The notes under the pieces are model-generated. The model was not told where the DNA came from, did not search any database, and saw only the letters and a list, made by a program, of their open reading frames with translations. From assembly GCA_964016885.1 (NCBI GenBank), contig OZ024740.1, forward strand, positions 413,726,001-413,790,000: 64,000 nt of DNA, written 5' to 3'. This DNA is from Eledone cirrhosa (taxonomy: Eukaryota). The number at the start of each line of letters is the position of its first letter. Within the stretch, counting starts at the first letter, position 1. Below, piece after piece: positions 1,099-64,000 of the stretch. The translations under genes were made by a program, and so were the position numbers.

Positions 1099-1160
<62 letters not shown>

Positions 1161-1211
1161 TAATAAAAATATTGAATAAAAACAAAGAAATAGTTCCTTA
1201 TATTAAAAAAT

Positions 1212-1342
1212 TCATCATTTTACGATCGTTTCTATGATATATATGTGTGAGTTGGTATGTATATCATATGTAAAATTTTTACAAACGATCAGAGGGAATA
1301 TACATACCTACACATATATATGCTGTCTTCAGAAATAATGAT
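1212..1342 (-). ncRNA. Type I hammerhead-like ribozyme with long stem II (family A)
   Basis: ATCATTATTT-CTGAAGA..long ATATATGTG/CACATATAT stem..GAAAC-GATC-GTA-AAATGATGA. Confidence 0.7.
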
Positions 1343-2095
1343 ATTTGTTTATTGAAAAAAACCAACAAAGATTTAATATAATAGGTCTGTTTGGGAACAG
1401 GTTTTGAATTGACCAATAGAAAGGTAGTAAGTGGTCAAGATGGTAGAATAGTAGTAATGGAACTTTAATTTAGGGGTAGAGGAAGGCAGATTTCAGTTTT
1501 GAATGGAAAGAGTATAATGAATGAAAAGATTATTTTGGGGATGAAAATAGGTCAAGTCGGTAAATGGTACACGAAAATTTGAAGTTATAAAAGAATAATG
1601 CTAATGTAAATATCTAAGGAAAATAAAATTTTACGATAAATGTGTTAGTGAAAAATATCAATCTTATTTAAAACATAAGGAATTTACATCTATAAAAAGA
1701 AAATAAATTAATTAAATTGATAGGTATATTTATATTGATAAATTTATATTAATTCATATAGATATGATAAATAAGAGTTAGATGTAATTGAAGAATGCTG
1801 TTAAAAACGAAGGGAAAATAAAAAAAAAATTATTATTATTATTATTATTATTATTGGGAGGGGGGGGGGTAAATTTATTAGTGAGAAATAACAAATTTAT
1901 ATAGATTATAAGGAATATAGATTCATAACCTGAAATTAAAATAGTTTATATGTATACTTATTGGTATAAATTTTAGGAAAAGATAGCTGTAAAAGGGAAA
2001 TAAAATTATGCAGTTCATTAGTAGTAGAATATTAATTATAGGTTAACTAATTAAAAAAAAGTGTTATTATAATAATTTGTAAACTGTATATTAAT

Positions 2096-4642
2096 TAGGT
2101 TTATAATATTTAAACGTTTTTCTCAATTTATGATTACATGATATAATTAATTCCTGTCGCTTATTTAATAGGATATCCTTAGATTTCATTATTTCAAAAA
2201 GTTCCTGGGAACATAATGTACATTCATATCTATTATTTTGATAAGGGGTGGCCCTTTTGAGCACACTCCAGGTCAGGTTATAATCTATATTCCTTTTTCT
2301 ATAATTATTAATTATTTCAGCTAAGGATGTTGTATTAGCTAATGCGGCATTTTTAAAACTGTTTGTGGGTATTAAATCTTACTTTAAATTGGTTAGAAGT
2401 AGCACCTATATATGAATAAGTTGAGTCCTTAGTGTTAATTTTACATTTATATACTATGTTATTAATAAGGCAATTTCCTTTTAATGGGCAATTTGCTTTG
2501 TTTCTACAGTTAGAACCTTTCGTGAATGCTGTATCAGAGGAGATAGTCAAATTAGGTGTGGAATTTTCACGACTTGTTGTATGTGAATGAGATGGTGGTT
2601 TGCTGTGGTTTATTTTAGTATTATGGTTAGTTTGATGTATTGGTGGTATATTCATGGGTTTTTTTACATTTATATGCATTATAGGCACTTATATTTTGTT
2701 GTATATTTTTGGTTGTTGAGTAGGAGAATTTAACTATTGATCTATTTAAAATTTGATGGTATTTATGGTTTGGCGGGAAGTTTTTCTCTAGGATAGTAAA
2801 AAAATATTTTAGGTATATTATCTTTAATTTGTAGATTAAATGGAGCATTATACCAAGTAACTCGTCTATTACGGTTTCGATGTTGTTTATTATTTTTATA
2901 GGATGTATCCTGATGTTTATTAAGAGAATTGGTATTAGTGATTTTATTACACATATTTTTAGTTAGATTCATTGATTTAGGTGTTTTAGCCTGTTTATTA
3001 GGAATTTTGTTATTAACATATATTGCAGTATTAGGAGGAATGGTTTTTTGAAAGTTACTATATTGTATATTAGAAGAGTTAGAGAAATTAAGTTTTATGT
3101 TGGTATTTTGGGGTATAGTGTGAGTGGCATTTAGGTGTGTATATTTCATTTGGTGTTTGTTGGTAATATTGGGTTGTATGTTTGTAGTGTTATTGGTACA
3201 AGGTATATATACTAATTTGTTTTTGTGGCCGCTTCTAGCTAAAGCTTCGTTATAAAAGGTCGCATTTTTATCAAATACATCCTGGTTAGACGAAAGGTTA
3301 GAAATTCTGAGTGAGATATTATATGCTAGGTTTTTAAGGATAGATTTAGGGTGATTAGATTGTGAGTGTATGTAATGTAAGTTTTGGTTAGGTTTATGGT
3401 AAGGTTGGTAGATACCCGTAGATAAGTCTAATGTTATATCAAGGAAATTAACTACTTTACTTGTGTTTATAAATGTAATATCGAGACTATAATAGTCTTT
3501 GAGGAAAGTTCTAATAAGTTTTTTTATTTTTTTCAATTTCTGATAGGCTAAGGTTATTGGAAAGAAGAAGACAGTCGTCACGATATAAACCACCTTTAAG
3601 GTGGGGGAAAAGAAGCATTTATGTTAAATAGAAGAAAGAGGCCCACAACATCGGTAATTTGGGCAGAATCACTAGAGCACATAGTAATGTCGAATAGATT
3701 ACTATATGTGTTTCTGGTCCAGTATTCTTTCTGAAATTCCAGTAGTGTTTGTCTAGCATGTGTGACAATATTAATGTCATCCATAGTTAAGTTTGATCTA
3801 TTTTTGGCAAATATCAAGGCTTTGTTCAGGAGTATAGGTGATATAGAGGAATAATAAGCATCTATATCGAATTGTAGAAATGAAGCAGAAGATTTATTTC
3901 TAATATTAGTAAACCAGTTAATTACCTGGGATGTGTTTTCCCAGAGTGGTAAATTAACATGTTTTCTTAATTGTGGGATGACTCTATCTAAAATTGTTTT
4001 ACTAATGATGCCAATGTCAGATTTGGAAGGGCATATAAGCCTTACAGAAGGATTAGAGTTAAAATTAGATTTGTGATCTTTCAGGTTAAAATGTGGTTTT
4101 TTCAGTGCCAAAGGTTCAGTTCTATCTTCAATATTAAGTCTATTTACTATGTTGTGTGTTTTGTTGTTGATGTTGGTAAGTACCGCATTGCTTGTTTTTT
4201 TATAATTTTTCCTGAGTTCTTTATATATGAACTCATTGTAATTATCAATATCCATGTGATACAGATTTCCAGTTTTGTCAGAATGGACATGGATTTTGTT
4301 AGATTTTTTTAGATCCAATAGGGTAGAATCAAGATCCTTTTTAAAATTAGATTTATATTTCTTAAATTTGAGGTGTTTGATTAAATTAAAAAGGTCTTTC
4401 TCGAAGTTTTCAAGCAAGGAGTTGTGTGGTGGGTTTTTATATGTAGTGAAATCAGATAAATATTTCTTATCAGTACATTTTGTTTTTTTATCGAAGTGGT
4501 AGGCCCTCCATCTGACCCTTTTGATGAATTGGTTGGTTTTTTGTATCATAAGAAGTAAGAATTGATCCTTAGAAGGTATTGGTATATTCTTTAAAGAAGT
4601 TCCCAAGTATTGCTTTTCCATTGTGATATGGATAATGGACAT
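2096..4642 (-). pseudogene. Frameshifted PLE RT-GIY-YIG polyprotein (family A)
   Basis: Colinear with the near-intact family B protein (61054-63515). Broken by small indels, several in homopolymer runs. Confidence 0.88.
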
Positions 4643-4869
4643 GAAAAGGAGCTCAACTATATATATAGAGGGAGTTATAAAATTATATATATATATACAA
4701 AAATATGAATACCTTCATAAAATTAAGAGCAAAGTATGTAGATAAATCTAACAAAATGTACGGTAGTGTCCAATCCGTATGAAGAACTCAATGTAATCCG
4801 AATATCATGAAAAGAGAAGATGTATTCAAAATGTTTTTAGATGAAAAACACAGGAAAACAGAGTCAATA

Positions 4870-6871
4870 CATTATTATTCCTCTATATCACCTATACTCC
4901 TGAACAAAGCCTTGATATTTGCCAAAAATAGATCAAACTTAACTATGGATGACATTAATATTATCACACATGCTAGACAAACACTACTGGAATTTCAGAA
5001 AGAATACTGGACCAGAAACACATATAGTAATCTATTCGACATTACTATGGGCTCTAGTGATTCTGCCCAAATTACCGATGTTGTGGGCCTCTTTCTTCTA
5101 TTTAACATAAATGCTTCTTTTCCCCACCTTAAAGGTGGTTTATATCGTGACGACTGTCTTCTTCTTTCCAATAACCTTAGCCTATCAGAAATTGAAAAAA
5201 ATAAAAAAACTTATTAGAACTTTCCTCAAAGACTATTATAGTCTCGATATTACATTTATAAACACAAGTAAAGTAGTTAATTTCCTTGATATAACATTAG
5301 ACTTATCTACGGGTATCTACCAACCTTACCATAAACCTAACCAAAACTTACATTACATACACTCACAATCTAATCACCCTAAATCTATCCTTAAAAACCT
5401 AGCATATAATATCTCACTCAGAATTTCTAACCTTTCGTCTAACCAGGATGTATTTGATAAAAATGCGACCTTTTATAACGAAGCTTTAGCTAGAAGCGGC
5501 CACAAAAACAAATTAGTATATATACCTTGTACCAATAACACTACAAACATACAACCCAATATTACCAACAAACACCAAATGAAATATACACACCTAAATG
5601 CCACTCACACTATACCCCAAAATACCAACATAAAACTTAATTTCTCTAACTCTTCTAATATACAATATAGTAACTTTCAAAAAACCATTCCTCCTAATAC
5701 TGCAATATATGTTAATAACAAAATTCCTAATAAACAGGCTAAAACACCTAAATCAATGAATCTAACTAAAAATATGTGTAATAAAATCACTAATACCAAT
5801 TCTCTTAATAAACATCAGGATACATCCTATAAAAATAATAAACAACATCGAAACCGTAATAGACGAGTTACTTGGTATAATGCTCCATTTAATCTACAAA
5901 TTAAAGATAATATACCTAAAATATCTTTTACCATCCTAGAGAAAAACTTCCCGCCAAACCATAAAAACCATCAAATTTTAAATAGATCAATAGTTAAATT
6001 CTCCTACTCAACAACCAAAAATATACAACAAAATATAAGTGCCTATAATGCATATAAATGTAAAAAGAACCATGAATATACCACCAATACATCAAACTAA
6101 CCATAATACTAAAATAAACCACAGCAAACCACCATCTCATTCACATACAACAAGTCGTGAAAATTCCACACCTAATTTGACTATCTCCTCTGATACAGCA
6201 TTCACGAAAGGTTCTAACTGTAGAAACAAAGCAAATTGCCCATTAAAAGGAAATTGCCTTATTAATAACATAGTATATAAATGTAAAATTAACACTAAGG
6301 ACTCAACTTATTCATATATAGGAGCTACTTCTAACCAATTTAAAGTAAGATTTAATACCCACAAACACAGTTTTAAAAATGCTGCATTAGCTAATACAAC
6401 ATCCTTAGCTGAAATAATTAATAATTATAGAAAAAGGAATATAAATTATAACCTGACCTGGAGTGTGCTCAAAAGGGCCACCCCTTATCAAAATAATAGA
6501 TATGAATGTAGATTATTTTCCCAGGAACTTTTTGAAATAATGAAATCTAAGGATATCCTATTAAATAAGCGACAGGAATTAATTATATCATGTAATCATA
6601 AATTGAGAAAAACTTTTAAATATTATAAACCTAATTAATATACACTTTACAAATTATTATAATAACACTTTTTTTTAATTAGTTAACCTATAATTAATAT
6701 TCTACTACTAATGAACTGCATAATTTTATTTCCCTTTTACAGCTATCTTTTCCTAAAATTTATACCAATAAGTATACATATAAACTATTTTAATTTCAGG
6801 TTATGAATCTATATTCCTTATAATCTATATAAATTTGTTATTTCTCACTAATAAATTTACCCCACCCTCCC

Positions 6872-6904
<33 letters not shown>

Positions 6905-7718
6905 TTTTTTTTTATTTTCCCTTCGTTTTTAACAGCATTCTTCAATTACATCTAACTCTTATTTATCATATCTATATGAATTAATATAAATTTATCAATA
7001 TAAATATACCTATCAATTTAATTAATTTATTTTCTTTTTATAGATGTAAATTCCTTATGTTTTAAATAAGATTGATATTTTTCACTAACACATTTATCGT
7101 AAAATGTTATTCTCCTTAGATATTTACATTAGCATTATTCTTTTATAACTTCAAATTTTCGTGTACCTTTTAGCGACTTGACCTATTTTCATCCCCAAAA
7201 TAATCTTTTCATTCATTATACTCTTTCCATTCAAAACTGAAATCTGCCTTCCTCTACCCCTAAATTAAAGTTCCATTACTACTATTCTAGCATCTTGACC
7301 ACTTACTACCTTTCTATTGGTCAATTCAAAAAGTGTTCCCAAACAGACCTATTATATTAAATCTTTGTTGGTTTTTTTCAATAAACAAATATCATTATTT
7401 CTGAAGACAGTATATATATGTGTAGGTATGTATATTCCCTCTGATAGTTTGTAAACATTTTACATAGATCTATATGATATATATACCAACACACATATAT
7501 ATATCATAGAAACGATCGTAAAATGATGAATTTTTTAATATAAGGAACTGTTTCTTTGTTTTTATTCATTATTTTTATTAATTTATCTTGACTCTGTTTT
7601 CCTGTGTTTTTCATCGAAAAAAACTTTTGGATACATCTTCTCTTTTCATGATATTCGGATTACATTGAGCTCTTCATACGGATTGGACACTACCGTACAT
7701 TTTGGTAGATTTATCTAC

Positions 7719-7720
<2 letters not shown>
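4870..7720 (+). mobile_element. Naiad-type PLE family A, 5'-truncated arm with complete 3' tail
   Basis: ORFs 4807-5217 (N-terminus chimeric; GGLYRDD), 5111-6100 and 6039-6638 (GIY-YIG, LLNKRQEL..CNH). About 1.1-kb 3'UTR ends at GATTTATCTACA, followed by (TA)n. Confidence 0.93.
7391..7529 (+). ncRNA. Type I hammerhead-like ribozyme with long stem II (family A)
   Basis: CTGAAGA at 7401 and GAAACGATCGTA at 7509-7520. Stem I pairs TCATTATTT with AAATGATGA. Confidence 0.72.
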
Positions 7721-7779: not shown

Positions 7780-11240
<3,461 letters not shown>

Positions 11241-22323: not shown

Positions 22324-22512
22324 CAAAGGAATTGTGGTAATGAACCAGATGGACCATAATGCACCAGAGTACTCAATACTTAGGGTAGTAGAGTGGGAAT
22401 TAGGAAAAAGTATGAAACAGACGGCAGAGCTCAAGCCGTTTAGACGGCTATTTCTGAGTCCAGAAATAGCCGTCGAAACGGCTTCAGCTCTGCCGTCGGG
22501 GTCATACTTTTT

Positions 22513-22559: not shown

Positions 22560-22743
22560 ATAATAATAAATGTGAAGACTAAAATCCAAAGAAGGCTCGA
22601 TAAGGATAATATATATATAAAATATATAAGAACCGTAGAGCAAATATTTATTAAAATAACAGATTAAAGTTTAAGCAAAGAATCGCTGCTTTCACCCTTA
22701 ACGGGATCTTCTGAAACTAACAAAGTCAATCTGTGAACGCAGA
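22556..22743 (-). mobile_element. 3' end of PLE family F including tail
   Basis: 22643-22743 is the reverse complement of ~10366-10466, extended by an ~85-nt tail also seen at 41486-41569. Confidence 0.85.
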
Positions 22744-26655: not shown

Positions 26656-27050
26656 AATGGTGGCTATGATGCTTCCATAGGCGGTACGCCAAAATTAGCA
26701 CTCAATATTCAACAGAGTAGAGTGTGTATAGTATAAAAATCGAAAAATCAGTGATGCAACTGGACTCAATTTATTGCGTGTTACAATTGTTTCGCCGGAA
26801 GGTAGCTCGAGACATGGTCCCTGTGTGTATCTGGCTGATTCTACGGCTGCAAGTTCTTTCAGACACGGGTAGTTCGTTCGGAGCAAATTTTATCACTGTG
26901 ATAAAATACCCGTGTCTGAAGGAACCTGCAGCCGTAGAATCAGCCAGATCCATACAGGGACCATGTCTTGAGCTACCTGCCGGCGAAACAATTGTAACAC
27001 GCAATAAATTGAGTCCAGATGCATCACTGATTTTTCGTGTTTTTATTCTA
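26656..27050 (-). mobile_element. Mini PLE-like insertion with inverted hammerhead-like arms plus tail
   Basis: Arms ~26728-26871 and ~26907-27050. CGTGT-CTGAAGGA..GAAAC-AATT-GTA-ACACG, then AATAAA. Related to 29716-30082. Confidence 0.8.
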
Positions 27051-27155: not shown

Positions 27156-27530
27156 GGTAGTGTAACTTGGAGTTACTGTAGGTTCACCCTGGGGAGCACT
27201 CGATGTTTATGTTCCCTTCTGTGTCGAGGTGTAGAGCTATACAGAGTGTATTATATTGAAAAGATAACAGGCCGATTGGTTACTCCTTCGTTACATTTAT
27301 TGGTTGGTGACACGCGATTCGCCACTGATCCGCTCAAGGTTCGATCTGTATCGATCGTACCCGACTCTGTCATTTGCAGCTTGACGTCGGGTTCCGTCGA
27401 GCTGCAGATTACAGAGTCGGGTAAGATCGATACAGATCGAACCTTGAGCTGATCAATGGCGAAACGCGCATCACCAACCAATAAATGTAACGAAGGAGTA
27501 ACCAATCGTCCTTGTTATCTTTTCAATATA
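27156..27530 (-). mobile_element. Mini PLE-like insertion: ~135-bp hairpin arms plus tail
   Basis: Arms 27252-27387 and 27396-27530. Contains GAAACGCGC/GT, related to the hammerhead at 46921-47013. Tail 27156-27250. Confidence 0.8.
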
Positions 27531-30146: not shown

Positions 30147-33100
30147 ATACTTGGGGAGGGTCATATTTGTGTAATATTGCCAGATTTAATAACAGAACAC
30201 ACTCACTGTTTGGTTGGTTTTCGCTTCTCGCTTCTGTGTCTTTTATATCGGTAATCTAACTTACTCGGTCCTCAATGTTGCCATTGACTGACCGACGGTC
30301 AAAAATAATACAGATACAATATAGACAAAAACACATATATATAGTTTATCATAAATCTTTCGTTGCACATCTGCAACATCGTCAGTGGTGTTATATCTTC
30401 CTCCTGTTGTATTGTATGTCTACGCCATTTTTATTCAGTCTGTCTATATATTTATTTATTTATTTGCTTGTTTGTTTATTTTATTTTGTCTTCTTTGCGC
30501 ATGCGTTTGCGTGTGTGTATAGTGTTTTGTTGACTAGTGTGTGTTTATGTGCTTGTGGTTATTGTGCTTGTGTATGTGTTTATTTATTTATTTATTTTAT
30601 TTTATTTACTTATTCATACTTCTCTTAGGTCAGTGTTGTTTGTTTGGGTGTTGTTGTTATTCCATTCATTCTTTCTGTTTAGCCTTGGTCTTCTAATTTC
30701 TATTTCACTGGCCTCTCTGATTTGCCTATCTGCTGGGTCATTTCTATGTTTAGATTTTATTCTAATTTCTATGTTGTCTATGTTACCGTCATGTTGTTGT
30801 CTAGCATGTTCGTATAGTACTGACCCGTTTTTTCGTCATTTTAGTTCCCCCCAGTGTTGGTCTATCCTTTCACCTATGCTACGAGCTGTCTCACCTATGT
30901 ATGTTGTTGTCATGTTTCTGCAAGTACCCTCTGTACATCTTATGCTATAGACTACGTTTCTGGTTTTACAGTTTATCCGGGGGTTCACCTTACATATGAT
31001 ACATTTCCTATTGGTACAGTGGGTTTTCTTAAAAGGGTAGGTTTTGCTGATCAGGGATTTTATGGTGGTTCCTGGCTTTTCTAACACTTTTATTTTAGAG
31101 TGGCTCTTTGTCAGGGCCTTTCTACACTGGTTAGCTAATTTCCCTCCAGGGGTGGCGTCCACAAACATGACACTCTGGTATCTCTGGTTGTCGTACCATG
31201 AGGTGGCTTTCCCTATCTTATGTCTAGCCCTATCTAAGCTATTCCATGATTTGCTCCTGTATAATGGGCAAATTCCTTTCATGTCCAGTTCCATGAGGGT
31301 CTTATACTTTTCCATGGCTCCAGAGAACTGCATGCGGTTGATGAAGTGTTGGATGTGTCTTTCCATTTCTGTTGGGTCGCACATACGGGACACATTCTTC
31401 ATCACTCGTACCAAATCTGCGATCAGAATATTAAACTTAGCACTACTGGACATTGCTGAGATTTTGAGTATCAGGTATTTGGAGGCCATGGGTTTAGCAT
31501 AGTGTGAGTGGAGAATTTGGGCTCTATCGTCTATAGTGTTAATCCAGAGTTCTGTGTCTAATACAGGTAGTCTATTGTTAGGGTGTTTGGAAGGGAAGTC
31601 GATAGTTACAGTTATATTCTGGTGTATGGAATTAGCTATCTGCTGGATGCTTTCCATCGTGCTACGTTCTATATCAAACTTGTTAGTGCTCTCTAGTGGG
31701 GGTGTTCTTATAACTATATTGATATCGTCTACATAACGAGAGTACATGATGAGGTCTATGGAGCTCTCATTAAGGAGATCTTTAAGTCTCCTTTCCCACC
31801 ATACCATGAAAAGGTTGGCAACATCACCAGCTATGCTGACGTCGATGGCTGCTCCCTCATTTTGGGTGTAGATCTTCTCGTTGAACTTAAATATGTGGCC
31901 CTTTAGGGTAGTTTTGATACTAGCCCCTATTGCATGGGCGACCATTTTTCTTACCTGATCATTGTTTTGGGGCGGTCCGTATAGCTTTGGTCCACCCAAT
32001 CCACCTTCCCATGGGAGTCTTTTTTGCCATTGAGGTTATGGTGGGGGGTCTACCTCTTATAGGTCTACTAGGGCAGAAACATCTAAGGTCATGGCTGTCT
32101 AGGTAGTCAGTGTCGTAGGTAAGTCTAAGTAGGAGGCCTAGTTCGTCTGTGTCGACGTCGCAGAACTCCACCTCACTCTCAATGATCATCTCTACACATC
32201 TTTTCACAGCAAAATCAATGTTAATGGATGGGTACAGTGACACCACATCCATGCTGCCTATTATGCAGTTGGGTAGGCTCCTGTTTTTGTTGCACTCACT
32301 GATTCTGCTGAGGAGGTCCTCTGTACTGTCACATACATCTGGGGACATCTTGATTATGGGGCGTATAACCATTGAGAGGAAGTAGGAGATCCTGTAGTTG
32401 CTAGCTATATTAGCTCCGCATACGGGTCTTGTTGGTGGTCCTGTTGTCGGGTCGTCGACTGTCTTGTGGTCTTTGCGGGGCCCATACAAGGGTGGTATGC
32501 CATTGTTAGACGCCTGGAAGTTGTTGGCAGTGCGTCTGCTTGGCTTTAGGATGTCAGTCCACATCATCATGTGAGCGTTGAGGATTTTCTCTCTCCCATC
32601 GTGTGTTTGTTGTGCAATTTCGCTCGTGTTGGTGATGTGGGGTTGCATAGCCTCGATGTAGTTCGGCATGCTATCTATTGACATCCTACCAGACTTATCC
32701 GTGAGTAGACATACTACCTCACTATCCCTTGTGCGCTGCTTGAGGCTAACCAAGCCTTCTACAGGTTTCCTACCAAGTTGTTGGGCCTCTTGTCTGCTCT
32801 GTTTCTTAGTATACCTGTCTACTATTTGTCTAATCTTATTTCTAGCTATGGTGAACTGTGCCTCTGTCTCGTCATCTATTTGTTGTGGTATGCAAACTCT
32901 TTTATTAAAGGGTAACCTCGTAGGATAGATATTACCCATCTTATATGTTTTGTCAGCTGGGTTGAAAAATAGTTTCTCTAAGGGGTTGTCATTATATCTA
33001 TCGTCATAGTTGTGTGTGTTGCTATTATTGTTATCATGGTGGTTGTTGTTGTTTCTATCATTAGCATTATTATTATTGTTATGATTGCTAGATGTATTGT

Positions 33101-34119
33101 TGTTTACTTCACCGTTATTGTTGTTGTTGTTACTGTTATTTCTACCATTGTGGTTGTTACTTTTATTATGTTTCTTGTTTTTCTTGTGTCTATCATTGAT
33201 GTTGCTACATGTACTATTTCCATTATTACCACTGTGGTTATTGTTGTTGTTGTTCGTATTGTTGCCGTTATTACTACTGTGGTCGCTGCTGCTGTGTCTG
33301 TGGTTAATGTTTCTATTATTATTATTATTGTGGTTGTTGTTGTTCTGTCCATCGCTAGTATTATTACCATTATCACTATTTCTCACTTTCCTGCTATTGT
33401 TATAGTTATGGCTGTTATTTCTATACTCAGAGTTATTGTTTATATTACTACTACCGTTATTATTGTTGTTGTTGTTTACCTTTGCATTCCAACGTATTTT
33501 TGTGAAACACTTTTCCAGCTCCGTTTTGCACTCCATAGGGTTAATCTTTTTGTAGATGGCAAATTTTGGTGATAGCCGCAGGATTTGTTGTTCTTGTTCA
33601 CTGATTAAAGTGTTCCCATAGACATTTACTGTGTGGTCATTGGTAAATTCTTCCGGTAGTTTTACATCAGTCATACGGATATTGTCGATGTTATCTGGGT
33701 ATTTTTGAGAATATTCGATTTTCCTTTCTTGTAGTTTTTTCTTATTTATCCATTCTAATTTCTTATTGAAATACCTATTGCATTCGTTTCGAGCGTATTT
33801 CGTTTCACGTCGGATGACGCTCATGAAGTTATCTCTCTCGTTTGCTGTGATGAGATTTCGGATTTCCTTACCGTTAATGCGTTTCTGTCTGTAAAGTGCG
33901 TTGACTTTTGTGTATGTTGTTCTTTTCATATTAACTGTTATTGTGTGTTTTAGTCGTTCGGCTTGTGTTTTGTTCAATAATAAATTATTTACTTGTTTTG
34001 ATATGTTTGTTGTGTATGTTTTGGAGGAAACACAGTGTTTTAAGAAGCGGATTTGTTCTGTTGTTATTGTAGTTTTTATATAACAGAAAACAATGTCTTT
34101 CAATAACCTTTCAGCTTGG
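30141..34119 (-). mobile_element. PLE family C (Neptune/Nematis-like), arm with 3' terminus
   Basis: ORFs 31959-~34119 (LSPKFA, DKSGR, GSMDVVSLYPSI) and 30836-31999 (YSRYVDDI, LPVLD, CxxC knuckle, VVYSIRC..YIGETARS). Clade assignment is tentative. Confidence 0.88.
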
Positions 34120-35612
34120 CATAACAATAATAATAATGCTAATGATAGAAACAACAACAACCACCATGATAACAATAATAGCAACACACACAACTATGAC
34201 GATAGATATAATGACAACCCCTTAGAGAAACTATTTTTCAACCCAGCTGACAAAACATATAAGATGGGTAATATCTATCCTACGAGGTTACCCTTTAATA
34301 AAAGAGTTTGCATACCACAACAAATAGATGACGAGACAGAGGCACAGTTCACCATAGCTAGAAATAAGATTAGACAAATAGTAGACAGGTATACTAAGAA
34401 ACAGAGCAGACAAGAGGCCCAACAACTTGGTAGGAAACCTGTAGAAGGCTTGGTTAGACTCAAGCAGCGCACAAGGGATGGTGAGGTAGTATGTCTACCC
34501 ACGGATAAGTCTGGTAGGATGTCAATAGATAGCATGCCGAACTACATCGAGGCTATGCAACCCCACATCACCAACACGAGCGAAATTGCACAACAAACAC
34601 ACGATGGGAGAGAGAAAATCCTCAACGCTCACATGATGATGTGGACTGACATCCTAAAGCCAAGCAGACGCACTGCCAACAACTTCCAGGCGTCTAACAA
34701 TGGCATACCACCCTTGTATGGGCCCCGCAAAGACCACAAGACAGTCGACGACCCGACAACAGGACCACCAACAAGACCCGTATGCGGAGCTAATATAGCT
34801 AGCAACTACAGGATCTCCTACTTCCTCTCAATGGTTATACGCCCCATAATCAAGATGTCCCCAGATGTATGTGACAGTACAGAGGACCTCCTCAGCAGAA
34901 TCAGTGAGTGCAACAAAAACAGGAGCCTACCCAACTGCATAATAGGCAGCATGGATGTGGTGTCACTGTACCCATCCATTAACATTGATTTTGCTGTGAA
35001 AAGATGTGTAGAGATGATCATTGAGAGTGAGGTGGAGTTCTGCGACGTCGACACAGACGAACTAGGCCTCCTACTTAGACTTACCTACGACACTGACTAC
35101 CTAGACAGCCATGACCTTAGATGTTTCTGCCCTAGTAGACCTATAAGAGGTAGACCCCCCACCATAACCTCAATGGCAAAAAAGACTCCCATGGGAAGGT
35201 GGATTGGGTGGACCAAAGCTATACGGACCCCCCCCCCCACACACACACACACAAAAACAATGGTCAGGTAAGAAAAATGGTCGCACATGCAATAGGGGCT
35301 AGTATCAAAACTACCCTAAAGGGCCACATATTTAAGTTCAACGAGAAGATCTACACCCAAAATGAGGGAACAGCCATCGGCGTCAGCATAGCTGGTGATG
35401 TTGCCAAACTTTTCATGGTATGGTGGGAAAGGAGACTTAAAGATCTCCTTAATGAGAGCTCCATAGACCTCATCATGTACTCTCGTTATGTAGACGATAT
35501 CAATATAGTTATAAGAACACCTCCACTAGAGAGCACTTACAAGTTTGATTTAGAACGTAGCACGATGGAAAGCATCCAGCAGATAGCTAATTCCATACAC
35601 CAGAATATAACT
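34120..35612 (+). mobile_element. PLE family C inverted arm, cut off by the next element
   Basis: ORFs 34093-35271 and 35199-~35612 are near-identical to the minus arm. Confidence 0.88.
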
Positions 35613-36930
35613 GGCGAGGTCTGCCGACTTATCAAGAGGATACCTCATTTTACTAGCCTCAAGAACGCGTCTACACGACGTGAGAAAGAATCCCAAAAGG
35701 CGGAGGGGGAGATAGTCACGCGATATAACGGTCGAGAAACAGAGCTAAGCCTCTTATAACCCCGAAGAAAATACCACGGAGGCGGAGGGGGTATTCATAT
35801 CGAAGCCGTAGAAGAGGTGGTGAAGGAGCGGAGAAGTATGAGTAATGGCTGCTTTCCAGCAGTCACTAAACTTCAAAGGTTGCGCATGTATCTGTGTGTT
35901 TCTAAATATATTGTTAATAACTCCCTCTGGTCGAGCAACCTTTGAAGTGTAGTGATTGCTGGAAAGCAGCCATTACTCATACTTCTCCTCTCCTTCACCA
36001 CCTCTTCTACAGCTTCGATATGAATACCCCCTCCGCCTCCGTGGTATTTTCTTCGGGGTTATAAGAGGCTTAGCTCTGTTTCTCGACCGTTATATCGCGT
36101 GACTATCTCCCCCTCCGCCTTTTGGGATTCTTTCTCACGTCGTGTAGACGCGTTCTTGAGGCTAGTAAAATGAGGTTTCCTCTTGATAAGTCGGCAGACC
36201 TCGCAAGGACTCTATATCTTTATGATGTATTGTTTTTGTTTATGCCACGAAACTACGTAGTCAAGGAATCTAGGAGCAGTTTAGGTATGATACATTTTAT
36301 TACTAATTATATCTAAATGTTTCTTCTCTCTTCATAATGTATTTTTAACTCTGATACTGGTTCAGTCTGGTTCAACCGGATTGGTCTGTCCCAGTCATTC
36401 ATTGAGCAACATCGGTGAGGTTGGCACCCTTAACTCACGGTTGGGTGTGGATGCATTCATGTATATGTGTGTGTCCGCATGTATCTGTGTGTTTCTAAAT
36501 ATATTGTTAATAACTCCCTCTGGTCGAGCAACCTTTGAAGTGTAGTGACTGCTGGAAAGCAGCCATTACTCATACTTCTCCTCTCCTTCACCACCTCTTC
36601 TACGGCTTCGATATGAATACACCCTCCGCCTCCGTGGTATTTTCTTCGGGGTTATAAGAGGCTTAGCTCTGTTTTTTGACCGTTATATCGCGTGACTATC
36701 TCCCCCTCCGCCTTTTGGGATTCTTTCTCACGTCGTGTAGACGCGTTCTTGAGGCTAGTAAAATGAGGTATCCTCTTGATAAGTCGGCAGACCTCGCAAG
36801 GACTCTATATCTTTATGATGTATTGTTTTTGTTTATGCCACGAAACTACGTAGTCGAGGAATCTAGGAGCAGTTTAGGTATGATACATTTTATTACTAAT
36901 TATATCTAAATGTTTCTTCTCTCTTCATAA
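35613..36930 (+). mobile_element. Retrozyme-like non-coding tandem element (593-bp unit, ~1.8 copies) with inverted arm 35613-35879
   Basis: GAAACTACGTAG at 36249 and 36842. Hammerhead-like TCCTC-TTGATAA..GAAAC-TACGTA-GTC-GAGGA at 36771-36860 (AAGGA in the copy at 36178-36267). Confidence 0.75.
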
Positions 36931-36956
36931 AATACACATATATATATATATATTAT

Positions 36957-37019
<63 letters not shown>

Positions 37020-37282: not shown

Positions 37283-37339
<57 letters not shown>

Positions 37340-40309
37340 TATGGTAAATATCTTTAAGACGTTTGGAAGCCTCGACAATGTAAATGGGTAAATCTCCGGG
37401 TAACAAGATCCGGTGGTGGAGAGAGAGATGTAAGTGGGTGTACGTTGAGATGCGTGGTGTGTATAAGAAGTGTAGAGGAATGAAGGAAAGAGTATAAAGG
37501 ATAAAATAAAAATAACAACACGAGAGAGAGTTACCTTGGGAGAGATTTAATTGTCCCTATATATTTCGGATTCACATCCATCAACTGGGGGTATTTTCCG
37601 TGGTGGGGGAAAGGTTGTCTGTTGAAAAGGTGCGAAACGCGTCCTTCGCTGTTTGTTGATTTGAATATCTGAGGTATTCAGCAGAGCGCGCGTGCGCGTG
37701 GAATGGGGTCGGTCGGGCAGAGGTCAGCGGCCGAATGTGGGAGTAGGGTGGCGCAAGCTGTCAGTCCATTCTCTGCCTGTTTGTTAAATGTTACTCTGTG
37801 TGTATGCGTGCGTGTGTTGTTGTCTCGCTTGAGTGTGTGTGTGTACGTGCGTGTGTTGTTGCCTTGTTCCTCTGTATTGGCAGTGTAGTATGTTCGTATG
37901 GTGGAATGCTACTGTGTGTGTGTGTGCGTGTGTAATTGTCTCGTGTGTGTGTGTGTGTGTGCGTGTGTTGCTGCATCTTTGTTAACTTAAACCAGCCACC
38001 TCATTTCGCTTCTCTCGGATCGATTGTTTATTTGCGGTTCCAAGCGTTTGATAAAAAGTGCTTCCTTGATACGTAACGTGCCGACGTTTCTTTCAGTCGC
38101 TAGAATTGTGACAATGGGCCTTCCTTCTTTGTTTCCGCATTTGTCTATGTGTTTCCGGAAAGACGAGGCCCTGGTTTTAGTGTGTTCCTTGATCCGGATG
38201 TGCAAAGATCGGATTGTGCTACCTATATAGTATTGGTTGCACCTGTCACATTCTATCTTATACACGACGTATGTGCGTAGGCAACAGTTCGCATGGCGTA
38301 TCGGGCAGTCTCTGGGGAGCAGGCCTTAGTAGATTCCCGGGTTTCCTGGAGAGGCATCTTCGCAGTGAGGGGCCCGAGTGAGCCAGGTGGATGCCGAGGC
38401 CCTCCCTCCGTATAGCCTTGCGGATAGCGTTGGTGGTATTCTAGCCCAGGTGTGGCATTTTAAGGAAGAACTTGCCTTGGGTGCCTCTCTATCTCTTGTG
38501 TCTGGTGTCTCCTACTCTGTCTGTGAGCGAGGTGGGGTACCCGTTCGGCTCCAGCACCTCGAAGAATCGCTTGGTATGAGTGACACCACTCGCGGGATCG
38601 CTGCATCTGTTTTTGATTCGCGCGATCTCGTTCGTGATGTATCCGCTTTTGGCACTGTTAGGGAGGGCGGACTTGTAGTGAACGAACAGGTCCCTGCAGG
38701 CTTCCTTTCGGTAGAAGTTGCAGTGGATCCTTCCCTGTTCCGTGATGTTGATCCGGAAGTCGAGGAGGGCAAGTGACCCGTCTTCGTTGGGGTGTTCAAC
38801 ACTGAAGTCAATGTTCTCGTCCGTGTTGTTGAACGTCTCATAGATTCTGTTCGCCGTGTCTTGGGAAGATGTGAGGATGAGGATATCGTCCACGTACCTT
38901 GAGAAAAAGGCGAAGGCGTTGGGGTGGCAGGCGTTCAGTGCCTTGCGCTCGAGGTTGTCCATGTAAGAGATCGCTAGCACACCCGTCAGACTTGATCCCA
39001 TGGGCAATCCCGAGGTTTGTTGGTATGTTTGTCAAGCAATCCGAAGTAGGTGTTGTCGACGACGATGGATAGGAGTTGCTGGATGTCAGTGGTGGTGAGC
39101 CCGAAGCAGTGTAGGTCGGTGGATTGGACGCGTTCCATCAGTATATTGACGGCCGGAACCGAGGTGTAGAGAGCGACTACATCAAGGCTGAAGGCATATC
39201 TGTTATTCCTTCTGGTGTCGGGATCCATTTGATGCAGGCGCTTCAACACCTCCTCGGAGCTGTTAACGTGTCTAGACAAGGTGTCTAAGATGGGTTTGAG
39301 TATTCTGGCTAGGAGCCATGAAATTTTGTAGAGTGGTCCCTCCACGCTCGATACAATGGGCCTGATCTTCAGGTTGGGTCCCTATTTGTGTGTTTTCACG
39401 AGGTGGTAAAAGGCGGGTAGTCTGCTGTTCCTCGTGAGGAGGTTGTATCTCAGCTTCTTCGGGAGCTTCCGCCGGTCGCAGATGTTGGTCCAGGCGGCGT
39501 TGATGTGCTCTTCTATCTGCGCGGGAGTGATTCCCGTGACCTTGGAGTAGAGGTTGTCATCGTCAAGGTGTTGGAGGGCCAGCGTGTTGTAGGCCTCTCT
39601 GCTGATGACGCAGAATTCTTTTCCCTTGTCGGAGGGGAGATAGATGAGGTTCTTCGATTTTAGGTTGGAGAGAGTGGTGAGTTGAGATTTGGTAAGGTTA
39701 TGTGTTGTGCGTGTGTGTGTGTGTTTGTGAAGTATATCCGAGATGGAGTGTTTTAGCCTGATGAGTTTAGTGTCGAGTTCGTGGTTGGTGGGTGGGGGTG
39801 GAGTGGGTTTTCGGGGTTGTAAGTGGGGAACTTGGGGTGGGTTGCGTGGTCGCTGTTATTTTCTGTGGCGCTGTTGATTTAAGTTGGTAAGCGGCTCGAC
39901 AAAAGTTGGCCTCGATGTTGAGTTTGAGTCTGTCGTCGAGACGTTGTGAGACGATGAACTTGGGTCCGAGGTGTAGGAGTTTCAGCTCGTCGCTCGTGAG
40001 AGTGCCGGTTAGGTCGGTGACCAGGTGCGTCGCATCGTTGAGGTGTGGTTCGGTGTTGGTGGATGCGGCGGTGGCGGTTGTTAAGTTGTTGTTTTCCACG
40101 TGGTTCTACTCCATCTGTTCGTTAGTGTCGATGTTCTCGTTGCGGCGTTTCGACAAGATGCACTCATATTTTCGCTTGAGCCGTTTTTTCTCGTATTGGA
40201 CTCTGGAGTGGTAGCACTGGTCGATTGCTTTAGTGATTTTCAGGAGCAAGTCACCGGGTGCTATTGACAGTCGATGTGTCCGCTCTGAGAGTGTCCGCTT
40301 ATGGACGGT
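37340..40309 (-). mobile_element. Poseidon-like PLE family E, decayed, with 3' tail
   Basis: LGPKF, RPIVS, FSLDVVALYTSVP, PMGSSL, SRYVDDI, LALLD, YKIECDRCNQYYIGSTIR..IKEH and LRIKEALFI..PQIN in ORF pieces 37987-40099. Confidence 0.9.
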
Positions 40310-41171
40310 CAGAGACTGCACGATACGCCATGCGAACTGTTGCCTACGCACATACGTCGTGTATGAGATAGAATGTGACAGGTCCAACCAATACTATATA
40401 GGTAGCACAATCCGACCTTTGCACATCCGGATCAAGGAACACACTAAAACCAGGGCCTCGTCTTTCCGGAAACACATAGACAAATGCGGAAACAAAGACG
40501 GAAGGCCCATTGTCACAATTCTAGCGACTGAAAGAAACGTCGGCACGTTACGTATCAAGGAAGTGCTTTTTATCAAACGCCTGGAACCGCAAATAAACAA
40601 TCGATCCGAGAGAAGCGAAATGAGGTGGCTGGTTTTAGTTAACAAAGATGCAGCAACACACGCACACACACACACAAACGAGACAATTACACACGCACAC
40701 GCACACACATACACAGTAGCATTCCACCATACGAACATACTACACTGCCAATACAGAGGAACAAGGCAACAACACACGCACACACTCACACAGTAACATT
40801 TAATATACAGGCAGAGAATGGACTGACAGCTAGCGCCACCCCACTCCCACATTCGGCCGCTGACCTCTGCCCGACCTACCCCATTTCACGCGCACGCGCG
40901 CTCGGCTGAATACCTCAGATATTCAAAACAACAAACAGCGAAGGACGCGTTTCGCACCTTTCCGACAGACAACCTTTCCCCCACCCCGGAAAAAAACCCC
41001 AGTTGATGGATGTGAATCCGAAATATATAGGGACAATTAAATCTCTCCCAAGGTAACTCTCTCTTGTGTAGTTATTTTTATTTTATCCTTTATACTCTTT
41101 CCTTCATTCCTCTACACTTCTTATACAGACCATGCATCTCAACGTACACCCACTTACATCTCTCTCTCACC
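40310..41171 (+). mobile_element. Family E inverted arm (GIY-YIG plus 3'UTR, lacking the tail)
   Basis: Reverse complement of ~37416-38313. Hammerhead-like CCC-CAGTTGA-TGGA..TCC-GAAATATATA-GGG at 40997-41032. Confidence 0.88.
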
Positions 41172-41370
41172 AACGAAGGAAGTGTGATAAAGAACCAGGT
41201 GGACCACAAAGCCCCAGAGTACTCAATACTTGGGGTATTAGAGTCGGTAAGAGGAAAATGTTCAAGACCCCGACGGCAGAGCTCAAGCTGTTTCGACGGC
41301 TATTTCTGGGTCAGAAATACCTGTAGAAACGGCTTGAGCTCTGCCGTCGGGGTCTTGAAATTTGTCCTAA
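41172..41370 (-). mobile_element. Mini hairpin+tail insertion (22321 family)
   Basis: Same tail and the GACCCCGACGGCAGAGCTCAAG hairpin. Confidence 0.82.
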
Positions 41371-43010: not shown

Positions 43011-43154
43011 ACACAATATACAATATATTAACAAATGGAAACTATATTTATAAAACCATATTTATTTCATTATACTCCAATAATGTGTTGAGTGCTTTAT
43101 ATCAGTTATAAAAATATTTTGCTTGTTGTATCCCAACAAATTAAATATAACCTC

Positions 43155-43218: not shown

Positions 43219-43382
43219 GTTATTCCGGGTTGAATCGGAGGTAACCACAGTAAGTAAGGTACTCAATACATTGCAGAGTATAAAAGTTTTAATATAGATG
43301 AGATTCTACAGGACTAGAACTGTTTCATATGATTTCTAAAGAATGAAACAGTTCTAGTCCTGTAGAATCTCATCTATATTAA

Positions 43383-47772: not shown

Positions 47773-48150
47773 ATGATATTAAATAAATGGAAACTATATT
47801 TATAAAACCATATTTATTTTGTTATATATATTTCAAGGGTACCAAGACAACATTGCTACGCTTTCATCAGATAAAATACAAAGTTTGTCTTATAAATAGA
47901 GACATACCCATGAAAATCATACCTTATCGGTTAGAAAATCACTGGATAGTATTTTATCTGATGAAAGCGTACCAATGTTGTCTTTGTTACAATTGAAATA
48001 TATAGAATAACATAAATATGGTTTTAAAAATATAGTTTCCATTTATTTAATATCATTGAATATTTACTCCAGTACGCTGTTGAATGCTCTAAAGCAGTTT
48101 TAAACATTTATGTTTGTCGGACTTCCAACAAATTAAATAGCACTTCTACT
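47770..48150 (+). mobile_element. Mini PLE-like insertion with hammerheads in both inverted arms plus tail
   Basis: Arms 47771-47879 and 47949-48058. Minus-arm reading: TATTTTAT-CTGATGA-AAG..CTT-GAAATATATATA. Confidence 0.82.
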
Positions 48151-51725: not shown

Positions 51726-53846
51726 ATAATGAAATGACAGGAGGCTGGATTTGTGTACATCCTTGAAAGGTTTATTATACTATGATCATTTCAATGACCG
51801 GGTTCCGTATGAATCCGGTGATATCATCAGGTATTCGAAATATAATAAGTGAATGTAATAGATAAAATTTCCCCATCTTACTCCACCACCCCTGTTGTTG
51901 GTCTATTTATATATTTATATATTTATACCTTTGCTTTCTTAATGTGCTTTTCCACGTATTTCACTTCTATGTAACCATGTATTTCTACTCCTCTTATTGG
52001 GACTTTTGCTCACTTGTACCCATTAGCACACGACACTAGAATGTCTCCCCCTGAGAACAAAAATAAATGTTACCCGACTATAATCCTTACTCTACAACCC
52101 ACTAGGATAGCTTATAGAAGATCTACATAATACAATTAACGTTTCTTCATAAAAGACTCTCTTTAACTAAACCCCGCAACCCAAAACCTTAAAAAAGTTT
52201 TTTTAAATGTTTAATTTTCAATTTTCTGTTTGTTCAATTCTTAATCTTCTTACTCTTTAATTTTATAATGTTATTCTGAATTCTTTCAACTTCATCCTAT
52301 AAATTTAAACAATATTTTAACGTTCCAAATTTCTGTCGGACTGTTGGGTTGGTTTTCCTGGCGGCGGGACCGGCCCCCTGGCGCATAGGCCTACCTTGAA
52401 TGCTTGGAAAAATAAATTTCCCCTTCTTTCGGTAAATGAAACTACTCGGAGTGGCTTGATTCACCCCAGGAGCCCGGCGCGCAGCCGATTTTTTAACCGC
52501 CATATAGTACCTTTAAATTACAGATCAAATCAGAACTATTAGATATATCACGCCTCCCTCTACTTAAACAAACCCCCCTCCTGGGTAAAGGAATAGTACT
52601 GGTTTTGTACAAGAATGGCCTAACGATGCGGGCTGACTTCCTGCTGGCGCAACTGAAGCCTGTTATACATTCCTAGGGTGCTCCGAAAAATCGACTTCCA
52701 TATCTTTCGCTAAGCGATATCACTCGGAGTGATGGGCTGGCCTAGCTTGTAGTCGCCGCATGCTGTTTGACGGCTAAACAAAGTCATAATCTTTACTCTA
52801 TAATAACATTTAAGTGTCTTTATAAAAGACTCTTTCTTTGCTTAAACCTCGCAACCTTAAAAATGTTAAACTGTTTAACTTTAAATTTTCTAATATCTTT
52901 AATATTAAATATTAATTTTTTAACTTCATTCTATAAGTCTAAACAAAAACGTAACGTTCCAATCTTCTGCTCACACATTATAACACACTGAACCCCACTA
53001 TATTTACCTCTGCTAAGATACGGGTCCCTGTGAAAAAATTTTTCGCGCCATTCCTGGCCTGACTGTAGTCTGACATTAATATCGACCTTTCTTCCTCTTT
53101 CTTTCTATCTTTCTTCTTGTAGCCATCAACCCTGATTTTCTACTTCTTCCTTTTCTTCCTTCTCTTCTCCCTTCTTTCTGTCTTCCTCCCGCTGACTTAT
53201 CTTCCTTCCCCTTTTGTTTGCCTATATTTGACCGGTAATAGTTGTTAAGATACGGGTGCCTTAGAATAAAAAAACTTTTCGCGACAATCCTGGCCTGACT
53301 GTAATACCGACCGTTCCTCCTCTTTCTTTCTGTCTTTCTTCTTATAGCTGACATTAACCCTGGCTTCTCTTCTTCTTTCTTTCTTTTTTCTTGTGGCATG
53401 ATATTAACGCTAACTTATGTCCCTATCCCTTTCTGTTTTCCTTTATTTGACCGGTAGTAGCACACTGTAAGCTTTAGCCACGTCACTCGAGGGCCACCGG
53501 CAAAGGTAGGAGATGCTGGATGGCGGTCGCCCTCGGGTCTTTGATTTTCAGCCCCATGGATTTTATCTATTACATTCACTTATTATATTTCGAATACCTG
53601 ATGATATCACCGGATTCATACGGAACCCGGTCATTGAAATGATCATGGTGTAATAAACCTTTCAAGGATTTACACAAATCCAGCCTCCTGTCATTTCATT
53701 ATAATATTTAACTCCGTAATAGCACCAACAACTACAAAAACAAAGACGGTTGAACTGCTTTACGTTGAGTACTCTCTATATTATTGCATTGTGATTGACC
53801 ATACGGAATTGACCAGCGCTATCCAGTGGTGAACCTCAAACCTGAA
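51722..53846 (+). mobile_element. PLE-like non-coding element G with inverted arm 51722-~51868 and hammerhead
   Basis: ATAC-CTGATGA-TATCACCGG..CCGGTCATT-GAAA-TGATCA-T(A/G)-GT at 53594-53651 (+) and 51777-51834 (-). Tail 53704-53846. Confidence 0.8.
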
Positions 53847-56842: not shown

Positions 56843-57100
56843 TGTAGGAGGTGAGTTTTATTGTAGTACAATAAAGCAATGCAGATATCGGATAAGAAGC
56901 ACTCTACAGTTTGTGGGACTGGAGTATGCATAATATAAGATCAAAAGATGGTTAAAGGAGTTCAATATATTTTATTATGCGCATTTCAAAAACAAACATC
57001 ATCAAACAATAATATTTGTGTTTTCATCAGATAAAACAGGAGAACATGATATGAAGGCTAAAAAAACACTTGTTGATAGTGCAGTTTTAAATCAACATAT
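56843..57100 (-). mobile_element. Nested mini PLE 3' end with hammerhead (56970-57036) and tail
   Basis: TTTTAT-CTGATGA-AAACACAAATATTATT..GATGATGTTTGTTTTT-GAAA-TGCGCA-TA-ATAAAA. Absent from the other family B copies. Confidence 0.78.
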
Positions 57101-63515: not shown

Positions 63516-64000
63516 TTGAAAGAGCTCAACTAAATGTATATGGGTTTACAAAATCATACATATATATGTATATACATAAATATAAAATTAATACACACAT
63601 ACAATACAAAAATACGAATATTTCCGTGAAAATAGGAGCAAAATTATGTAGATAAATCTACCAAGAGTTTACGGTAGTGTCCAATCCGTATGAAGAACTC
63701 AATGTATTCCGGATATCATGGAAAGAAGAGATGCAATGAAAAATCACTTTCGGTGAAAGATAAACGGAATACAGAGTCAAGATAAAATATTAAAAAAATA
63801 ATGAATAAAACAATGAAACAGTTCCTTATATTAAACAAAAAAAGTTCATTATTTAACGATCGTTTCTAGGATATATATGTGTTAGAATTGGCATGCATAT
63901 TCAACAGATCTATGTACAAAATTATACAAAATTATACAAACTATCAAGATTAAATATACATACCAAACACACATATATGCCGTCTTCAGAAATAATGAAA

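Follow-up and report, generated by a model that had tools for sequence, protein, structure and literature searches.

Paired bulged hairpins beside the two insertion ends of Hydra-type Penelope-like elements in Eledone cirrhosa

The 64,000-nt stretch of Eledone cirrhosa DNA analysed here (contig OZ024740.1, forward-strand positions 413,726,001 to 413,790,000; hereafter the window) belongs to an animal genome of 3.0 Gb and holds many (TA)n runs together with broken open reading frames (ORFs) of Penelope-like elements (PLEs). Positions 7581-7720 are the tail of an inverted insertion of one such element, family A, whose arms (1157-3857 and 4872-7584) share 96.9% identity, with a continuation to 7719 in the right arm only. 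The inverted arm (1157-3857, minus strand) stops at (TA)n roughly 6 nt before a hairpin that we term hairpin 1, and the tail missing from it (7585-7719, plus strand) abuts (TA)n at its outer end, 7719. Hairpin 1 (7591-7670, plus strand) is made of ACTC at 7591-7594 and GAGC at 7667-7670, a TT bulge and a second helix, TGT/ACA. A read-through copy of the same family carries hairpin 1 at 4786-4864 (minus strand) and a second hairpin, hairpin 2, at 4651-4730 (minus strand), in which GCTC stands 6 nt past the outer-end position and is matched by TT-GAGC; an ATG (4621) follows 29 nt on. The pseudo-LTR of family A also contains a predicted hammerhead-like motif (7392-7529, plus strand; core at 7401, GAAA at 7509) that was read by eye, and its counterpart in family B was picked up by a pattern scan.

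The same arrangement recurs in family B, where hairpin 1 (63697-63777, minus strand; second helix TGTAT/ATACA) is followed by hairpin 2 (63524-63639, minus strand), with GCTC 7 nt past the outer-end position, a second helix CTA/TAG and a long loop, and then by an ATG at 63494; the ORF (61054-63545, minus strand), of Hydra type with reverse transcriptase (RT) and GIY-YIG endonuclease, is broken into two overlapping frames. Family F is represented by a 5'-truncated Hydra-type element (7784-10462, plus strand; broken ORF 7784-9463) whose pseudo-LTR stops at the inner end, and by a hairpin 1 at 22595-22641 (minus strand) with GCTC/GAGC and a TC bulge. Further copies of hairpin 1 lie at 43261-43279 (family C, minus), 22371-22394 (D, minus), 26700-26723 (E, minus), 27198-27247 (G, minus), 43074-43093 (H, plus), 53711-53770 (I, plus) and 56901-56925 (J, minus). 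All eleven ACTC...GAGT sites listed by an initial annotation of the window were confirmed, coordinates included, with 11-72 nt between the 4-nt words. Some of the variants that it recorded have a narrower meaning: the GAGC at 7667-7670 is private to one copy rather than a family variant, since 25 of the 27 parsed family A copies have GAGT in hairpin 1, and the GAAT words at 11189-11192 and 48082-48085 are present but are minority variants, belonging to mutated copies of hairpin 1 in families C (11174-11192, plus) and H (48066-48085, plus).

These families had been described as some ten unrelated ones, many of them non-autonomous. Judged from their sequence motifs against the available part of the published definition (Craig et al. 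2021, PMC8557442), they instead fit diverged members of a single clade, the Hydra clade of C-terminal, endonuclease-bearing (EN+) PLEs. In families A to H and in J, the tail leads into a Hydra-type N-terminus or ORF start of the family's own, so that nine of the ten are coding. In family B the RT motifs are followed by VY..YIG, a C-terminal GIY-YIG signature; Pfam returned no match for this ORF at a threshold of 1e-3. Family B has RVRWR and DKT, RW[RK] occurs in C, D, E, F, G and H, and J has RWI or RWT; B and F add a CxCx5C linker and an endonuclease without CCHH, with CxxC and CxH around E and N, while the other coding families were assigned from their N-termini alone. The order of RT and GIY-YIG without CCHH, RW[KR], DKT and the linker are features shared with the clade as PMC8557442 presents it in the part available, as are (TA)n targets, a hammerhead and an inverted arm with a one-sided tail. 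Insertion into (TA)n is observed here, and a loose hammerhead core, a predicted motif, was found in 14 of 23 clusters. Tails measure 64-183 nt here against 30-40 nt there. Tandem spacing is about 3.5 kb in family D and 3.9 kb in family J, above the length given there as generally under 3 kb. Most genomic copies are 5'-truncated stubs, with a median shared length of 138-509 nt, but natural Hydra copies with uninterrupted frames of 758-963 aa also occur. A first assignment to the Neptune type was dropped.

Family I, alone of the ten, looks non-coding from its sequence. It has both hairpins, an ORF start is absent in two of two read-through copies, a hammerhead-like core lies near 53599, and one copy runs on until it meets its hammerhead-like motif again, which puts the unit at about 466 nt; there is one tandem junction (L365; window positions 53526-53846). 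Tandem arrays with a 310-nt unit and a hammerhead-like core, retrozyme-like in appearance, were also seen at three other loci (L094, L103 and L109).

Other PLE types provide a few negatives. The tail of a common PLE family whose endonuclease is of CCHH type is 60 nt long and lacks the hairpin motif, which suggests, with negatives being few, that the hairpin is clade-specific. The hairpin pattern had no match across 37330-41175, a non-Hydra PLE. The PLE at 37411-41175 has a CxxC within its GIY-YIG domain and inverted arms. Another non-Hydra PLE (30836-35883) combines a Cx4CxxC linker with an insert rich in Asn and with a perfect inverted duplication of 1.1 kb (31969-33083 and 34120-35234), and the segment around it (30380-36960) gave eight loose matches to the hairpin pattern. 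A GCTC/GAGC hairpin found after a non-Hydra end at L055 was rejected, as it belongs to another family and the upstream sequence is absent in the 14 other copies listed. Cluster T6 (L045:8305, L136:1103), a common non-Hydra family with tails of 50-60 nt and long-short pairs in 16 of 16 cases, has its tail bounded by complementary GTTTC/GAAAC words, possibly a signal of its own. Elsewhere in the window, a 579-aa open frame at 57721-59460 (minus strand) with a strong RVT_1 match appears by eye to be LINE-like and not a PLE, and a 100-200-nt repeat is present in nine copies of 80-92% identity (17420, 20083, 20856, 21792, 21962, 25967, 41403, 45510 and 47053).

The ACUC...GAGU stem of the initial annotation proved to be one helix of a bulged hairpin: an RCUC/GAGY helix, a 2-nt UN bulge on the 3' side, and then a second helix whose sequence varies between families. 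The annotation had recognized the first helix and overlooked the bulge as well as the second helix and hairpin. Its proposal that the stem covaries across families is borne out by a set of 19 family representatives, composed of 18 passing clusters among 22 chosen by eye, plus family G, and retaining one mis-parsed representative (g57). Pairs 1-3 of the second helix are intact in 19, 18 and 15 of the 19 families, against shuffle means of 11.0, 14.8 and 7.4; these counts were reached by 0, 28 and 3 of 20,000 partner shuffles, respectively, and pair 4 showed no significance against shuffles in the same set. The Watson-Crick fraction is 0.84 at the 2-nt bulge register, compared with 0.07-0.28 at the others; the bulge U was built into the search pattern, whereas second-helix pairing was not imposed by it. 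At the first pair of the outer helix, nine families have A-U and nine have G-C. As partner shuffles disregard kinship among families, changes were also counted along a tree of RT sequences from 41 metagenome relatives, with 30 hairpin 1 rows: the first pair of helix 2 changes seven times, with 5', 3' and joint changes of 7/7/7, and the fit is looser for pairs 2 and 3 (12/11/16 and 12/12/16). Hairpin 2 is weak in helix 2 past a first C-G pair, with U-U at pair 2 in 15 of 39 cases.

Loops range from 8 to over 100 nt, and the folding energy of nine single tails was no better than that of shuffles (z from 0.17 to -1.72). Helix 2 shows 10 G-U against 6 A-C combinations, and the better-folding strand is the sense one in 20 and the antisense one in 26 of 51 hairpins. 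Among the best 150 of 261 Rfam matches, none reached the gathering score or fitted the hairpin, the only hits being to miRNAs and driven by microsatellites. In a GTTC/GAAC variant of hairpin 1 (L065:1073 and L045:4866, clusters T48 and T109), both sides of the outer helix's second pair have changed. Hairpin 1 of family J (56901-56931, minus strand) shares 28 of 31 nt, including the loop, with hairpin 2 of one metagenome relative (L205:430-460), and the sequence around the match shows no further similarity; from this sequence likeness, hairpins may have been duplicated or swapped between positions.

The positions of insertion ends were surveyed in 1.6 Mb of DNA fetched by position, irrespective of content. 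In the first 1.0 Mb plus the window (1.06 Mb), each of ten query tails showed, among the matches listed, two clusters of 3' ends at (TA)n, one just before RCTC and the other at the outer end. A motif-blind search of 1.66 Mb clustered 2,405 (TA)n junction flanks into 67 cluster pairs, 39 of which (33 long-end clusters) had long TA runs at both ends. Of these 39, 17 have RCTC close to the inner end together with a complementary TN-GAGY, against 0.13 expected from dinucleotide shuffles; the 22 motif-negative pairs include artefacts, variants and other PLE types. The inner end lies at a median of 3-11 nt from RCTC, in agreement with the annotated placement of this end close before ACTC. The outer end had been put at some 45-80 nt past the GAGT-like word, and here the annotation does not hold: the distance from GAGY to the outer end is 38-76 nt in the ten listed families and 33-112 nt in the de novo set, a threefold spread, and therefore the outer end is not measured from the stem of hairpin 1. 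Of the two end clusters predicted relative to ACTC, the inner one thus sits at a short fixed distance and the outer one is not fixed.

What the outer ends do keep is a distance, mostly 6-8 nt, from hairpin 2, which itself is left uncopied. The tail is therefore the spacing between two hairpins: a pseudo-LTR with its hammerhead-like motif leads to the inner end and hairpin 1, and these are followed by the outer end, hairpin 2 and the ATG. In read-through copies of families A, B and F, and of one other coding family, hairpin 2 is found 5-8 nt past the outer end; a further de novo family has it 15-18 nt past. It also follows the outer end in families D, H, J, E, G and I, for which a pattern joining tail end and RCTC matched 481, 50, 284, 24, 10 and 86 times, respectively (mostly microsatellite in the case of E), and reversed controls gave none. 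Inspection of 13 such places revealed nine full hairpins 2, three mutated ones and one interrupted by (TA)n; hairpin 2 is mutated in two of three read-through copies of family E and in one of two of family H. Family C has no canonical hairpin 2: in its place, about 6 nt past the end, 14 of 15 ORF starts (L297-L311) carry a GCAC/GTGC-type stem with a 5-nt loop and no bulge. Bases at inner and outer ends are usually TA-rich. Internal TA runs account for apparent ends of family F at +30 to +32 and for several additional end clusters, which were discarded as artefacts, and a search for a direct tail-to-tail repeat in family D gave 0 matches.

The relation between ends and hairpins was tested on a held-out family from outside the junction set, with a query whose DNA stopped 28 nt before hairpin 1. 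The 36 arms, from 30 loci, stop 6 nt before hairpin 1 in 15 cases and 6-7 nt before hairpin 2 in 17; of the rest, two stop at other positions and two read through. A lone GCTC between the two hairpins of this family had no end at the matching distance.

Both hairpins are also found in more distant material. A search with the family B protein gave 1,205 matches, from which 76 metagenome loci were fetched; 53 of these have a recognizable ATG, and 38 have 170 nt upstream of it. In 24 of these 38 partly redundant loci, at least two hairpins lie within the 170 nt before the ATG (two hairpins in 22 loci, three in 2, one in 12 and none in 2), the two cases with three being mis-parsed near-duplicates. 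Two hairpins occurred in 3 of 3,800 shuffles and in none of 360 ORF windows; the reverse strand of the same loci gave 4 of 38, a consequence of partial self-complementarity in the motif. Hairpin spacing is 59-83 nt, hairpin 2 mostly lies 34-55 nt before the ATG, and hairpin 1 is 100-290 nt from it. Among the consensus sequences in the part of the PMC8557442 supplement available, that of Hydra-1_Ajap opens with both hairpins and then an ATG, those of Hydra-2_Ajap and Hydra-2_Amil close with hairpin 1 plus tail, and those of Hydra-1_Amil, Hydra-1_Obim and Hydra-1_Crog gave no clean hairpin match by eye. A scan of viral contigs found no relatives.

Inverted insertions combine the two kinds of end with great regularity. 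Among 107 pairs of adjacent, outward-facing ends of one family, 97 consist of one long and one short end, 8 of two short and 2 of two long ends; four clusters without the full motif were excluded from this total. Unpaired ends are 91 long and 87 short, 178 in all. One long and one short end also make up 16 of 16 pairs in a non-Hydra family that lacks the motif, and the rule is therefore general to PLEs, the hairpin being at most the site marker that Hydra elements use.

From the order of the elements, the covariation, the end positions and the presence of one end of each kind per inverted insertion, all of them observed, it appears likely that each hairpin docks the element's RT on the RNA, and that copying would start just upstream of the hairpin; we hold this reading with reasonable, not strong, confidence. 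Twin hairpins would then likely account for the long-known one-sided tail. Docking, action as a dimer, and the use of RNA rather than DNA and of the sense strand are what we infer from these observations. The template would be a read-through sense RNA crossing the junction of two tandem units. The protein would bind the RCUC/GAGY helix, the UN bulge and a conserved 3' ACU, nick (TA)n, and prime some 6-8 nt 5' of the hairpin. The tail-less arm would result from priming at hairpin 1, and the tailed arm, with hairpin 1 inside it, from priming at hairpin 2, so that two protein copies acting on two target strands would produce a head-to-head insertion with the tail on one side. Strand displacement, two tandem units or two RNAs are candidate routes by which both cDNAs could copy the shared upstream RNA. 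More tentatively, the twin hairpin may be a loading site in two parts, in which each subunit of a PLE dimer would sit on one hairpin of a single RNA. The dimer would cut both (TA)n strands and prime two cDNAs 6-8 nt upstream, so that one reaction would produce both the inverted arm and the one-sided tail. This stricter version is a serious possibility, which we favour somewhat less than its negation.

Several other explanations were weighed against docking of the RT. The hairpin could act in DNA, either first-strand cDNA or donor, being recognized by the GIY-YIG endonuclease and cut about 6 nt upstream during resolution of a transposition intermediate. Parts of the literature lean this way, as the available text of PMC8557442 ascribes the tail to endonuclease-mediated resolution and that of PMC11167929 recounts that the Drosophila virilis Penelope endonuclease required the tail for cutting of plasmid DNA; the G-U counts above favour neither RNA nor either strand. 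We nevertheless consider it unlikely: the tail ends of PAc, the Poseidon element of Anolis carolinensis, are reverse-transcription start sites in vitro in the same portion of PMC11167929, and loops of 8 to over 100 nt with a one-sided bulge speak against a double-stranded DNA site. An RNA-processing role, in which a nuclease or a transcription stop makes RNA 3' ends about 6 nt upstream that are then reverse-transcribed by end priming, has for it the very sharp end positions and the coincidence of PAc start sites with RNA-seq read ends (PMC11167929, part available), yet extension of the RNA 3' end left the PAc product size unchanged in that source, hairpin 1 stays uncut in tailed copies, and if RNAs of two lengths combined at random, about half of the pairs would be mixed, against the 97 of 107 observed. 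Its probability seems to us slightly lower again.

Far less probable is a role of the hairpins in translation or RNA packaging at the start codon, the ends being set by annealing of the adjoining AT-rich bases to (TA)n. The position of hairpin 2 in the metagenome relatives, mostly 34-55 nt before the ATG, and the usual TA-rich bases at both ends would suit such a role; against it stand the retention of both hairpins in non-coding family I, ends at a fixed distance from a hairpin 1 that is itself 100-290 nt from the ATG, and the rare use of other AT-rich spots in the tail. The initial annotation had favoured a single stem acting as a template-boundary ruler, with one priming site on each side and many non-autonomous RNAs as clients, and inserted tailed copies do show one stem flanked by one end on each side. 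Of this proposal the general idea survives, the stem being a good candidate for an RNA handle of the PLE protein in view of its covariation and its short fixed distance from an insertion end. The ruler itself is most improbable, as the stem lies 33-112 nt from the outer end, which is mostly 6-8 nt from hairpin 2. A boundary element is not supported either, since the hairpin lies on the side where copying of the region begins and every tailed copy shows hairpin 1 copied through; and with nine of ten families coding, and only I apparently non-coding, there are few such clients. Chance words or shared ancestry without any structure might be invoked for short words in families of one clade, and this last explanation, to which we assign almost no probability, is largely refuted by 17 motif-bearing cluster pairs against 0.13 expected, repeated two-sided changes on the tree and a single bulge register.

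Short structured RNA handles bound by a reverse transcriptase have precedents in the template-boundary element of telomerase RNA and in hepatitis B epsilon. The telomerase element stops copying past the template, whereas hairpin 1 is copied through; epsilon, a bulged stem-loop, serves at its bulge as the template for protein priming, and copying here would instead begin outside the hairpin. Among PLEs, the closest system is PAc (Frangieh et al. 2024, PMC11167929), for which the text available describes two internal RNA start sites in vitro that equal the tail ends, extension of both target strands and a start site identical for both strands. Two internal starts bounding the tail, AT-rich targets, extension of both strands and a predicted dimer are common to both cases, and two fixed insertion ends of this type bound the tail in the families studied here; PAc differs in belonging to another clade, in having its start in a stem-loop of AC-rich sequence inside the ORF, and in that this part of its description has no repeated or cross-family recognition motif. 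For EN+ PLE pseudo-LTRs, Arkhipova et al. (2013, PMC3846280) likewise report an optional tail on one inverted pseudo-LTR but put the inversion down to self-priming, possibly on an antisense template; the words 'hairpin', 'stem-loop' and 'secondary structure' have 0 matches in the portion of that article available. Non-LTR retrozymes (Li et al. 2026, bioRxiv 10.64898/2026.07.22.740005) share with family I non-coding hammerhead units thought to borrow PLE enzymes, and differ from most families here, which are coding; the available portion of that preprint leaves the cis signal unnamed, with 0 matches to 'hairpin', 'stem', 'tail' and 'initiation'. A description of the hairpin was likewise not found in the available part of PMC8557442, with 0 matches to 'hairpin' in the supplement, although its consensus sequences contain the hairpins unremarked. 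The tail, the inverted arm, the two start sites and non-autonomous partners are thus already published, and the twin hairpin was not found described in literature searches whose coverage lay outside most subscription journals and Repbase.

How PLEs choose their RNA and start sites, and how an inverted arm with a one-sided tail arises, are questions called unresolved in the available parts of PMC8557442 and PMC11167929. A covarying motif of 17-30 nt at a set distance from both ends makes start-site choice directly testable, and the hairpins give a rule for locating the boundaries of Hydra elements and their non-coding partners. The hairpin is also a candidate RNA handle for a reverse transcriptase family related to telomerase. 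Should the two-part loading site be real, a hairpin of about 20 nt would suffice for any RNA, non-coding family I being an example, to be directed into (TA)n; it would also constitute a compact cis-acting RNA signal for the reverse transcriptase of the sister group of telomerase.
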